Counted from the stretch's first letter, positions 2,350 to 28,233 are shown. The stretch: 30,990 bases of DNA from Alphaproteobacteria bacterium (GCA_015232485.1 JADFZP010000002.1:1-30990), one strand, 5' to 3'. Notes: a model not told the origin generated them from the letters alone. A program made the numbers and translations.

Positions 2350-2388
2350 AATTAAGGTTAACCAACGCAACAATTCGCAAAATTTGGA

Positions 2389-2417
2389 TCGACTCCTGGA
2401 ACGAAATTTCGTAATCT
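2389..2417 (+). promoter_or_regulatory. Putative sigma70 promoter for an intergenic transcript
   Basis: TCGACT (2389-2394)-N17-TAATCT (2412-2417), with AT-rich UP-like DNA upstream (2347-2388). Confidence 0.5.
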
Positions 2418-2423
2418 CCAGTT

Positions 2424-2557
2424 AGCCCAGTGATGGGCCTCTAGCTCAAGTTTGGGGAGGTTCCGCCGAACAAGCGCCTTTAGGCTGCGACGGCGGACGG
2501 GAGCGAAGGGCAAGTTGAAATAACGGGGCCGTGGTGACGCGGCCCCGTTATTTTTTT
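2424..2557 (+). ncRNA. Candidate small RNA, about 134 nt (could instead be a 3'UTR of the permease mRNA)
   Basis: Lies between convergent genes, bounded by a promoter-like element and an intrinsic terminator. Hairpins GCCCA-GTGA-TGGGC (2425-2438) and TCCGCCG/CGGCGGA (2462-2468/2491-2497). No credible ORF. The 5' end is estimated. Confidence 0.45.
2518..2557 (+). terminator. Rho-independent terminator
   Basis: AAATAACGGGGCCG-TGGTGACG-CGGCCCCGTTATTT: 14-bp stem ending in a T7 run at 2551-2557. Overlaps the tag stop codon on the other strand and may be partly bidirectional. Confidence 0.85.
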
Positions 2558-3084
2558 GTCCAGGGCGGAGCCAAGGCGGCGATCCGCGCCGCCACCGGGC
2601 AGTCGTCGCGATGGGCGCCGGGCAGATATCCGATGCTGGTCAGGAACTCGCCGACCACCTCGCCGCCCATGAATTTGAAGGTGGCGCGGAACAGCTTGAT
2701 CCAGTCCTCGCGGGGCCGCGGGTGGTGCGCCCCGATCCAGGCGGCGAAGGAGCCGTGGGCTTCGACCAGCGCCAAAAGCCGGCGGGCGTTCTCGATGGTG
2801 GCTTGGATTTTCAGCCGGTTGCGGATGATTCCGGCGTCGTCCATCAGCCGGGCGATTTCGGGCTCGCCCCAGCCGGCCACCACGGCGGGGTCGAAGCCGT
2901 GGAAGGCTTCGACCAGGGCGGGCCGCTTCTTCAGCACGATCAACCAGGACAGCCCGGCCTGGAACACTTCCAGCGTCAGCCGCTCGAACAGCGCCGAGTC
3001 GCCCTCCAGCGGGAAGCCGTATTCGTGGTCGTGATACGGACCGTGGACCGGGTGGCCCACCGCCGCCGCGCAGTAGGAGGTCAC
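2548..3084 (-). CDS. tag: DNA-3-methyladenine glycosylase I (Tag family), 178 aa
   Basis: YHDHEYG, LFERLTLEVFQAGLSWLIVLKKR and GIIRNRLKIQATIENA. Zn-ligand pattern Cys/His at the N-terminus and His/Cys (HRDDC) at the C-terminus. GTG start overlaps the mce stop (GTGA). Confidence 0.92.
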   Translation of the reverse strand: MTSYCAAAVGHPVHGPYHDHEYGFPLEGDSALFERLTLEVFQAGLSWLIVLKKRPALVEAFHGFDPAVVAGWGEPEIARLMDDAGIIRNRLKIQATIENARRLLALVEAHGSFAAWIGAHHPRPREDWIKLFRATFKFMGGEVVGEFLTSIGYLPGAHRDDCPVAARIAALAPPWTKK

Positions 3085-3485
3085 GCCTGCTCCAACTCGA
3101 CCAGGGTGCCCAGGAAGTCCTTGGGGTGCAGGAACAGCACCGGCTTGTCGTGGGCGCCGATCTTGGGCTGGCCGTCGCCCAACACGCGGGCGCCGGTCGC
3201 CTTCATCTGGTCGCGGGCGGCCAGGATGTCTTCGACCTCGAAACAGACGTGATGGACTCCGCCCGCCGGATTCTTGTCGAGAAAGCCGCGAATCGGCGAC
3301 GACTCGCCCAGCGGGTGGAGCAGTTCGATCTTGGTGTTGGGCAGGGTCACGAAGACCACCGTGACGCCGTGCGCCGGCTGCGGCACCGGCGCCGAGACGG
3401 TGCCGCCCAGGGTGTCGCGGTAAAGCCTCGTCGCCGCCTCCAGGTCGGGGACGGCGATGGCGACATGATTGAGTTTGCCGATCAT
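3081..3485 (-). CDS. mce: Methylmalonyl-CoA epimerase, 134 aa
   Basis: VOC-fold motifs KLNHVAIAVPDL, HHVCFEV, GAHDKPVLFLHPKDFLGTLVELEQ; GGAGA SD before ATG 3485. Confidence 0.93.
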   Translation of the reverse strand: MIGKLNHVAIAVPDLEAATRLYRDTLGGTVSAPVPQPAHGVTVVFVTLPNTKIELLHPLGESSPIRGFLDKNPAGGVHHVCFEVEDILAARDQMKATGARVLGDGQPKIGAHDKPVLFLHPKDFLGTLVELEQA

Positions 3486-3507
3486 GCTTTGGGTCTCCAA
3501 GAGTTTG

Positions 3508-5163
3508 TCAAACCCGGATCAGATGGACGTCGGTCACCGGCTTCTTGCCCAGCGTCGCCTTGAGATGGCGGCGCACGGCCAGGCGCGCGGCTTCCCTGAG
3601 CACCGCGTCGTCGCGTCGGGCTTGCAGCGGCATTTCCTCGACCGCGTCGCGCACCGCGTCGACCACCGCCTCGTGCTCGCGCGCCTCGTGCTCGGCGTCG
3701 AGGATGCCCATCGCGGTGACCTGCGGATCGGCGAGCAGCCGGCCCATGCGGTCGATCACCAGGGTGACCACCGCCGAGCCATTGGCGATCATCCGGTGAC
3801 GATCGCGCATGATCTCGGAGTCGAGTCGCACCAAGCGGTTGCCATCCAGCGCCAGGCGGCCGGTGGGAACGTGGTCGATCACCTCGGGCCCGTCATCCGT
3901 CAGAAGCAGCATGGCGCCGTTCTCGATCACCGGGGCGTGCGCCACCTGGCACGACAGAGCCAGACGAGCGTGCTCTTCGAGATGGCGCCGCTCGCCATGC
4001 ACCGGCACCAGGATGCGCGGCCGCACGAGTTGATACATGTGGGCCAACTCGTCGCGCGCCGGATGACCCGAGACGTGGACGAATTCGTCACGCTCGGTCA
4101 CCACCTCGACGCCTAAGCGGGCGAGCATGTTCTGCAACTGGCCGATCGCCTTCTCGTTGCCCGGAATGATCCGCGACGAGAAGATCGTCACGTCGCCGCG
4201 CCCCAGCGTGACGTGCGGATGCTGGTCGGTGGCGATGCGCGACAGCGCGGCGCGCGGCTCGCCCTGGCTGCCGGTGCAGATGTAGAGCACCTTGTCCTCG
4301 GGCAAATACCCGGCGTCGTGCTCGTTGAGGAAGGCCGGCGTGCCCTTCAGATAGCCGTTCTTGCGCGCCGCCGCGTCGATGCGCCACAGCGAACGCCCGA
4401 CCAGCGCCACCTCGCGCCCATTGGCGAAGGCGGCGGCGGCGATGCTTTTCACCCGCGCCACGTTGGTGGCGAAGCAGGTCACCGCGACGCGGCGCTGGAA
4501 GCGGCCGATCAGGGGGATCAGATTGGCGCGGACATCGGCCTCGGAGCCCGACCAGCCCTCGGTGAAGACATTGGTCGAATCGCCCATCACGGCGAGCACG
4601 CCCTCGTCGCCCAGTTCGCGCAGCCGGGCCTCGTCGGCCACCTTGCCGACCTGCGGATCGGGGTCGAGCTTCCAGTCGCCGGTATGGAGAACCAGCCCGG
4701 CCGGCGTGCGAATGGCCAACGCGTTGGGCTCGGGAATCGAATGGGTCAGGGTCACGAACTCGACGTCGAACGGGCCGACCGTGAAGCGCCCGCCCAGCGG
4801 CACCACGGTGACCGGCACTTGGCCCGCGATGCCCGCCTCCTGCAACTTGCCGTGCAGCAGGTCGGCCGCGAACGGGCTGGCATAGACGGGGCAGCGCAGC
4901 CGCTTCCACAGATGGCCGATGGCGCCGAGATGGTCCTCGTGCCCATGGGTCACCACGATGCCGACCAGATCCTGGCGGCGGTCGGCGATGAAGGCGGGAT
5001 CGGCCATGAAGACGTCGATGCTGGGCATCGTGTCGTCTCCGAACGACACGCCCAGATCGACGATCAGCCATTTGCCGCCGTAGCCGTACAAATTGAGGTT
5101 CATGCCGATCTCGCCCGCCCCTCCCAGGGGCAGGAAGATCAGCCCGTCTTTATCCTGGGTCAT
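3508..5163 (-). CDS. rnj: Ribonuclease J, 551 aa
   Basis: [10 protein letters not shown], metallo-beta-lactamase [29 protein letters not shown]. Confidence 0.95.
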
Positions 5164-20982: not shown

Positions 20983-21059
<77 letters not shown>

Positions 21060-21362: not shown

Positions 21363-21438
21363 TGGTGGGCGGTGACGGGATCGAACCGCCGACATCCTGC
21401 GTGTAAAGCAGGCGCTCTGCCAGCTGAGCTAACCGCCC
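21363..21438 (-). tRNA. tRNA-Val (TAC), 76 nt, encoded CCA
   Basis: GGGCGGTTAGCTCAGCTGGCAGAGC-GCCTGC-TT-TAC-AC-GCAGG...GGTTCGATCCCGTCACCGCCCACCA. Confidence 0.97.
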
Positions 21439-28148: not shown

Positions 28149-28233
28149 TGGTGCGGACGAAGGGACTTGAACCCCCATGGCTTGCGCCGCTGGAACCTAA
28201 ATCCAGTGTGTCTACCAGTTCCACCACGCCCGC
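28149..28233 (-). tRNA. tRNA-Leu (TAG), 85 nt, long variable arm, encoded CCA
   Basis: GCGGGCGTGGTGGAACTGGTAGACACA-CTGGA-TT-TAG-GT-TCCAG-CGGCGCAAGCCATGGGGGTTCAAGTCCCTTCGTCCGCACCA. Confidence 0.97.

Follow-up and report, generated by a model that had tools for sequence, protein, structure and literature searches.

A probable CrfA-type sponge of the αR8/MmgR small RNA encoded beside tag in Alphaproteobacteria

A small RNA (sRNA) of about 134 nt, predicted in the gap between convergent permease and tag genes of an alphaproteobacterial genome, is probably a CrfA-type sponge of the αR8/MmgR sRNA, a reading that we derive from comparative sequence analysis and to which we assign a probability of roughly 0.7. 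The RNA belongs to a conserved family that is absent from Rfam, and its most conserved loop is complementary to the seed of αR8. In the mechanism we propose, a stand-alone sRNA would be transcribed on the plus strand from its own sigma-70-type promoter and would end at an intrinsic terminator overlapping the tag stop codon on the opposite strand. Between two helices (P1 and P2), a large G/A-rich loop that is single-stranded and resembles a Shine-Dalgarno (SD) site would then base-pair with the anti-SD seed of αR8, probably on Hfq. Such pairing would occupy the αR8 seed and may trigger αR8 decay, so that the repression of mRNA targets by αR8 would be relieved.

αR8 (also MmgR, SuhB or SisA) is among the most widespread sRNAs of the Alphaproteobacteria, and controls carbon storage, catabolite repression and transporter expression. 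To our knowledge, CrfA, described in 2025 in one species, is the only known antagonist of αR8. Positions given below are those of the window, i.e., the whole stretch of 30,990 nucleotides analyzed here (GCA_015232485.1, JADFZP010000002.1:1-30990).

Genomic context and anatomy of the RNA

The gap between the permease and tag genes measures 198 nt (2350-2547) according to the sequence and the ORF list (Table 1). A preliminary description of the locus had put it at about 200 nt, and its structural observations are borne out: the TCGACT-N17-TAATCT promoter, the GCCCA/TGGGC hairpin, a GGGGAGG segment (2454-2460) that is not followed by a start codon, the TCCGCCG/CGGCGGA stem, an outer GCTC/GAGC pairing, and a 14-bp terminator with T7 are all present, and no gene follows the RNA on the plus strand. 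RNAfold gives the terminator a stem of 17 bp with a GC-rich core of approximately 14 bp, and a U-run lies 3' of the hairpin on the plus strand only. The plus-strand RNA has a fold energy of -65.5 kcal/mol (z = -3.83), which was equalled by none of 200 shuffled sequences, and AAGUUUGGGGAGGUU of the loop is unpaired in the minimum free energy structure. A consensus scanner flagged no promoter and no terminator between positions 2000 and 3200; both are nonetheless supported, because they are conserved at the same positions in homologues.

Table 1. Features of the sRNA locus and neighboring genes, in window coordinates
Feature	Position	Strand	Remarks
Xan_ur_permease gene	ends 2349	+	Pfam
Upstream promoter block ACGCAACAATTCGCAAAATTTGGA	2365-2388	+	Matches family acgaAa..tt / A-tract region (42 aligned promoters, MAFFT alignment)
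-35-like TCGACT	2389-2394	+	Family consensus gTGACg; same position as TGAC in homologues
Perfect palindrome ACGAAATTTCGT in promoter spacer	2401-2412	+	Family consensus gaaATTgCgTA
-10 hexamer TAATCT	2412-2417	+	Family TAnnnT; 17-nt spacer after TCGACT
Predicted sRNA, ~134 nt	2424-2557	+	Putative 5' end placed from the -10 hexamer; 3' end is the terminator U-run
5' hairpin GCCCA-GUGA-UGGGC	2425-2438	+	Fold; shortened form of the variable 5' domain
Seed-binding loop GCUCAAGUUUGGGGAGG	2444-2460	+	Complementary to αR8/MmgR seed CCUCCCUAAACUUGAGC
Helix P1, GCUC/GAGC	2444-2447 / 2501-2504	+	Fold; closes loop and P2
Helix P2, UCCGCCG/CGGCGGA, nested GCC..GGC	2462-2468 / 2491-2497	+	Fold; variable stem-loop
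Intrinsic terminator, stem 2517-2533/2538-2554 into U7 at 2551-2557	2517-2557	+	Fold
tag/Adenine_glyco (DNA-3-methyladenine glycosylase) gene	2548-3084	-	Pfam; convergent to permease gene
tag stop codon	2548-2550	-	Inside 3' arm of sRNA terminator
Glyoxalase-family gene	3081-3500	-	
RNase J gene	3508-5163	-	

The C-terminus of the tag product reads ..WTKK*, and the codons of the last two Lys residues are the U-run of the sRNA terminator. On the minus strand, the RNase J gene, the glyoxalase-family gene and tag are arranged head to tail (2548-5163), and probably form a single operon since the glyoxalase stop codon overlaps the tag start.

The absence of a known family at this locus, as suggested in the preliminary description, was confirmed. 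At gathering score, the only Rfam 15 matches in the window were three tRNA genes elsewhere on it, all on the minus strand (20986-21059, 21366-21438 and 28152-28233; 72.2, 66.5 and 50.9 bits, respectively). The best match between positions 2300 and 2650 had an E-value of 0.63, and the corresponding loci of 14 relatives yielded none.

Promoter

The sequence pattern TGAC-N18-TAnnnT is found upstream of the RNA in 42 of 47 distinct homologues, compared with a mean of 0.23 and a maximum of 3 in shuffled sequences. The promoter consensus is acgaAa..tt.a.aaAAAaa..tGgTGACg...G.aA.gaaATTgCgTA.a.T, and TCGACT-N17-TAATCT of the window sits exactly at the family promoter position. The window and its genus-mate (genome G001) carry cGAC for TGAC, and are hence among the five homologues that fail the strict pattern; the window promoter has seven of 12 consensus positions and is weak by consensus. 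Within the -10 region of the family, A(-11) and T(-7) are always kept and the preceding CG is sometimes lost, which fits a sigma-70-type element and speaks against the EcfG type. EcfG/sigma-T promoters follow the pattern GGAAC-N16/17-CGTT, and this reading was rejected, as GGAAC is not conserved here while TGAC and TAnnnT are. Sigma-54 and ECF readings were set aside on the same grounds, TGAC and TAnnnT being the conserved elements. Together with the covarying terminator and the variable upstream gene, the conserved promoter supports the earlier proposal of an independently transcribed RNA of about 135 nt, with transcription predicted to start near position 2424.

Further elements in this region may bind a regulator. 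The upstream promoter block would be an UP-element-like or regulator site, and the promoter spacer, which is conserved across homologues, includes in the window the perfect palindrome ACGAAATTTCGT, a possible operator. This palindrome occurs once in the 3.96-Mb assembly, and because it is unique no regulon was found by way of it. An ACGAAAnnTT-like word appears twice in the promoter (2365-2417 and homologues), near -60 and again in the spacer, with the two strongly conserved copies about 34 nt apart. This repeated word may be a regulator site; no known motif matching it was identified.

Homologues and structural covariation

A BLAST comparison of the gap with 40 relatives gave a full-length match only in the genus-mate (93% identity), along with a few short matches beside tag in other genera. 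Positions that distinguish the genus-mate from the window are confined to loops, the stretch immediately 5' of P2, and the terminator. The sole change in the 5' hairpin is in its loop, and the terminator has undergone a compensatory change from A-U to G-C. The tag gene was found in 76 of 81 genomes, and 30 tag loci were taken from the family. A 17-nt core, GCTCAAGTTTGGGGAGG, allowing up to three mismatches, lies convergent to tag at 23 of these 30 loci, and a covariance model adds three more, giving 26 of 30; in the others (L051, L052, L054 and L059) the RNA was found neither by motif nor by covariance model.

Model R1, built from 10 sequences, yielded 50 hits that were aligned, 47 of them distinct. 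These alignments are fitted to the model, which favors structure, but controls with slid partners argue that the signal is real: for the 47 distinct sequences, pairing holds in 91.8% of cells as opposed to 74.6% in shuffled controls, both partners have changed in 23 of 26 pairs, and the covariation score is 0.455, versus 0.184 for shuffled sequences and 0.07-0.11 with slid partners. A 56-sequence alignment (A6) gave comparable values (91.1% paired, 23 of 26 pairs, score 0.433). Individual helices contribute as follows: all eight modelled pairs of P2 have changed on both sides, 11-12 of the 12 terminator pairs covary in the family, and the P1 homologue GCG.GCUC/GGAG.ACGC is 84-89% paired, also with changes on both sides. 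The window itself is divergent, scoring 27.8 bits with the first model, and is recovered by the broader model R2 with 50.2 bits (E = 2.4e-10, 2441-2560).

Alignment and single folds reveal a common order of elements, namely a variable 5' domain of one or two hairpins, P1, AAGUUUAGGGAGGA, P2 and the terminator. The AAGUUUAGGGAGGA stretch is nearly invariant and single-stranded, on the 5' side of an internal loop; in a 24-sequence alignment GUU, GGGAGG and four further columns are invariant. The distance from the -10 element to the core is 28-89 nt (mostly 38-56 nt) in homologues versus 23 nt in the window, which indicates that the 5' domain of the window RNA is shortened.

Two other pairings were considered and rejected. 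RNAalifold, applied to 10 sequences, proposed GCGGCUC/GAG.GUCGC, which is impossible in the G066 group and in the window, while P1 with GGAGACGC is conserved. An anti-terminator formed by GGCUCAAG and the 3' arm of the terminator does not covary where the terminator differs. As a separate observation, the terminator stem opens with positions (GGC...GCC, usually GGCAAG...CUUGCC) that hardly vary across the class, being kept in 53-54 of 56 sequences (alignment A6, columns 155-199). Such invariance is unusual for a terminator stem, and the stem in the window differs (AACGGGGCC, 2517-2554).

Complementarity to αR8 and co-evolution of loop and seed

When the family was searched for the reverse complement of the loop, most genomes turned out to contain additional exact copies. 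None of them is a paralogue of the window RNA: read on their own strand, they show the order promoter, stem-loop, CUUUCUUGGACGUUUCCUCCCUAAACUUGAG, terminator and U-run, and they are members of RF00519 (suhB, "Makes More Granules Regulator RNA", the αR8 family), with scores of 57.7-68.4 bits against a cut-off of 41. In the source genome (G000), the reverse complement occurs once more, on contig C322, where αR8 is encoded at C322:1615-1689 (RF00519, 63.4 bits). The loop at 2444-2460 and the seed of this αR8 can form 17 pairs (16 Watson-Crick and one G-U), i.e., a loop that looks like an SD site is the complement of the single-stranded anti-SD seed UUUCCUCCCUAAACUUGAG. Cofolding of the two RNAs uses this loop-seed duplex and gave a ddG of -22.2 kcal/mol, compared with -10.7 +/- 2.1 kcal/mol for 100 shuffled loops. 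Of 30 carrier genomes examined, 28 have an RF00519 hit, and in 26 it exceeds the cut-off. The source genome also encodes hfq. A G-U-tolerant genome-wide scan for targets was also tried and discarded as too noisy.

RF00519 is accordingly the partner and not the window RNA. The window loop is the reverse complement of the RF00519 seed, and the promoter and terminator place the window RNA on the GGGAGG strand rather than the CCUCCC strand; RF00519 gave no match to the window RNA on either strand at E-values up to 10. The preliminary description had speculated that the SD-like segment and three GGA motifs could act as a decoy or sponge. Its sponge proposal, which named no partner, is now the best-supported reading, given that the loop is the complement of the αR8 seed and co-varies with it. 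A Csr-like importance of the GGA motifs is not supported: the three motifs are there, but carry no weight, and a CsrA/Rsm-type sponge was rejected (RsmW, 12.8 bits, E = 7.3), as there is one conserved G-rich loop in the RNA in place of a series of GGA hairpins.

To assess co-variation, the 18-nt loop of each of 27 genomes was set against the 18-nt seed of that genome's best αR8, which gave 16 distinct combinations. Three carriers were left out, two in which no αR8 was found (G095 and G114) and one whose only αR8 hit has no CCUCCC (G181). In the majority pairing, CUCAAG of the loop faces CUUGAG of αR8. Eight genomes (G066, G069, G089, G079, G058, G093, G052 and G010) have the converse, loop CUUGAG with αR8 CUCAAG, amounting to two compensated pairs. 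Two compensated pairs are likewise seen in G021 (GGUCCAAG with CUUGGACC), one in G017 (GUUCAGGG with CCCUGAAC), and one plus two G-U pairs in G140, G118, G221 and G212 (GGCCCGGG with CUUGGGCC). Over the 16 combinations, cognate partners form on average 15.75 Watson-Crick pairs versus 14.70 for non-cognate partners, and 17.06 versus 16.31 pairs in total. The cognate values were reached in none of 20,000 permutations, a count that is not a true probability and overstates significance because the lineages are related. The real evidence for co-evolution, which would point to selection on pairing, is in the four compensatory lineages. Poorer pairing with the best-scoring αR8 was seen in G003 and G012, although G003 has a second copy with the exact seed. 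If the interpretation is correct, this intermolecular covariation is comparative evidence of a kind that is rare for an interaction between two sRNAs.

The αR8 genes of relatives show features of their own. Extra exact copies of the αR8 3' end (terminator and seed) stop right after the seed, for example at L200, L211 and L217 (genomes G023, G056 and G014, respectively), and in general among L199-L218. Short words (GGTAACA or GCATACA) recur after these copies, a pattern resembling the duplication of att sites by integrative elements with the αR8 3' end as their target.

Distribution in the class

Within the order, model R1 picks up the RNA in 18 of 151 genomes (f1, 7/9; f5, 6/6; f8, 4/10; f2, 1/6), and model R2 gave candidates in 41 of the 151 at E <= 1e-5. 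At class level, with one genome per family, R2 returned hits in 52 of 151 genomes at E <= 1e-3. Inspection by eye covered 36 of these loci, weaker R2 hits being set aside, and 26 loci (in 26 genomes) had the G/A-rich core together with a terminator on the same strand; most of them also had a TGAC-N17-19-TAnnnT promoter. Matches of distant members to Rfam were only to RF00519, and on the opposite strand: above the cut-off in L270 (45.5 bits) and L282 (46.9 bits), and below it in seven others (L252, L255, L262, L271, L272, L274 and L279). All nine may be αR8 genes read backwards or cis-antisense αR8/sponge pairs, which leaves 17 clean candidates of the 26 and thus at least 17 other families of the class. 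The opposite-strand matches also suggest that the sponge descends from an inverted αR8 copy.

A pattern scan of contig records produced, among the matches listed, mostly chance occurrences, and eight of the matches listed were confirmed by covariance model at E < 1e-5. These comprised two Rhodospirillaceae-labelled MAGs, a third record identical to the copy in G002, Terasakiella sp. PR1, Caenispirillum salinarum, a Proteobacteria MAG, an Alphaproteobacteria MAG, and one MAG labelled Bacteroidota. The last of these (L078) carries a 90.6-bit copy of the RNA with the family promoter, and its contig is probably misbinned.

Comparison with known sponges and alternative explanations

In Caulobacter crescentus, the four αR8 siblings SisA-D are sponged by CrfA in an Hfq-dependent manner (Vogt et al., Nat Commun 2025, PMC12559287). 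That study annotates CrfA with a length of 129 nt on the minus strand of strain NA1000 (NC_011916.1:3781372-3781500); carbon starvation induces the RNA, which pairs on Hfq with the αR8 10-mer UUUCCUCCCU through a G/A-rich region (G49-C63). The RNA described here resembles CrfA, as portrayed there, in being a stand-alone sRNA of similar size (~134 nt) with an accessible G/A-rich stretch complementary to the same 10-mer, in having the same partner family, and in the presence of an hfq gene in its genome. In most family members the loop starts approximately 45-50 nt from the predicted 5' end, close to the position of G49-C63, and the family stretch GUUUAGGGAGGAAAC is likewise 15 nt long, with G first and C last. 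Loop position and GUUUAGGGAGGAAAC are consistent with homology to CrfA, without proving it, since CrfA was compared by its published description. The two differ in that the 5' domain of the window RNA is much shorter, with the site only about 20 nt from the predicted 5' end, and in that the duplex of the window family extends into the αR8 terminator flank (17-18 bp). On every feature tested (gene, loop, partner and co-variation), and with CrfA known from that description, the window RNA appears to work as CrfA does.

Sponging of one sRNA by another has precedents in unrelated systems. SroC and GcvB are a sponge and sRNA pair, in which SroC derives from an mRNA, whereas the window RNA has its own predicted promoter. 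As in that pair, and as in QrrX of Vibrio, an sRNA sponge described in PMC12559287, one RNA would sequester the seed of a single sRNA or of several siblings; organisms, sequences and partners in those systems bear no relation to the ones considered here.

Complementarity alone cannot tell which RNA controls which, and the direction of regulation proposed here could be reversed, or the role dual: the RNA would then be a trans-acting sRNA with mRNA targets of its own, contacted through the 5' hairpins or P2, and αR8 would bind the loop to control it. Such a scheme draws on the symmetry of the complementarity, on conserved sequence that is also present in the 5' domain and terminator stem, and on the Caulobacter RNAs, which lower each other's levels according to PMC12559287. 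We consider it unlikely, as the αR8-complementary loop is the only nearly invariant single-stranded stretch of the family while the 5' domain varies in length and sequence; moreover, the same account relates that CrfA, too, was first taken as an mRNA regulator, its sponge role being shown later. Somewhat less credible still is a functionless relic, either an inverted and decayed αR8 copy or an att-site duplicate left by an integrative element, whose complementarity is simply inherited. The duplicated αR8 3' ends of relatives, flanked by repeated short words as at att sites, are compatible with this, and the αR8-like opposite strand of distant candidates means that complementarity could partly reflect descent from an inverted copy instead of selection for pairing. 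However, no opposite-strand match to RF00519 was seen in the window's own order, 42 of 47 homologues keep the plus-strand promoter, there is covariation in P2 and the terminator, and the loop tracks lineage-specific changes of a cognate αR8 located elsewhere in the genome, which is not expected of a dead relic.

We give very little weight to explanations in which the element acts in cis, as the 3'UTR and terminator of the permease mRNA or as a shared convergent terminator or antisense control of tag. In the sequence, the stretch from the permease stop codon (2349) to the RNA has no terminator, and permease read-through could therefore be another source of the RNA; in addition, the terminator overlaps the tag stop codon, and linkage to tag holds in 24 of 25 loci. 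Yet the upstream gene is variable, with the permease in that position in only 3 of 25 loci, which argues that the RNA is not a permease 3'UTR, for which a conserved promoter would be needless in any case. Furthermore, the RNA lies away from tag in G002 and about 1 kb from it in G052 and G010, and the U-run follows the hairpin on one strand only. It is equally hard to credit that the loop is a real ribosome-binding site, belonging to a tiny mRNA or to a decoy drawing off 30S subunits or an RNA-binding protein. GGGAGG after an A/U-rich tract does look like a strong SD sequence, but an ATG occurs 4-12 nt after GGAGG in none of 56 family members, GTG or TTG at that distance in only 15 of 56, none of them conserved, and conservation reaches a further 10 nt upstream of the SD, with a match to αR8 rather than to 16S rRNA.

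A sponge of αR8 thus appears the most probable role for the RNA, and what seems to be new is a co-evolving module conserved far outside Caulobacter, with an RNA family absent from Rfam. A term search of the main text of PMC12559287 found no discussion of CrfA conservation outside Caulobacter, the word "sponge" is absent from a preprint on SuhB (10.64898/2025.12.09.693200), and no αR8 sponge outside Caulobacter was found in the literature searched. If the interpretation is correct, a separately promoted, αR8-complementary RNA that co-evolves with αR8 has been conserved in an order other than that of Caulobacter, and probably across many families, and αR8 would quite generally be subject to a further level of control by sponges. 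The covariance model would now be usable to annotate the family, and the conserved promoter would offer a handle on the upstream signal. More tentatively, and at slightly less than even odds, the CrfA/αR8 pair could be an ancient, co-evolving, class-wide module of the Alphaproteobacteria, in which the sponge arose from an inverted αR8 copy that gained a promoter, and the conserved promoter (A-tract, gTGACg, and spacer gaaATTgCgTA with the palindrome) could be the binding platform of a conserved regulator that reports carbon status.

The promoters of αR8 and of the sponge differ in at least one kind of word. The sponge promoter is without a TGCAnnGCA word, two of which are found around -35 and -10 in αR8 promoters (L210, L214 and L220), where they agree with YGCRNYGCR, the PhaR/AniA motif that PMC12542648 describes for S. 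meliloti mmgR. The source genome also carries an αR8-like element on contig C50 (8770-8845) that scores 33.6 bits with RF00519, below the cut-off of 41. A stop codon immediately precedes this element, which is provided with a terminator of its own. With the G-variant loop of the window, the seed of the element, CCUCCCCAAACU, forms 12 Watson-Crick pairs, and the element may be a second partner, of the 3'UTR type.
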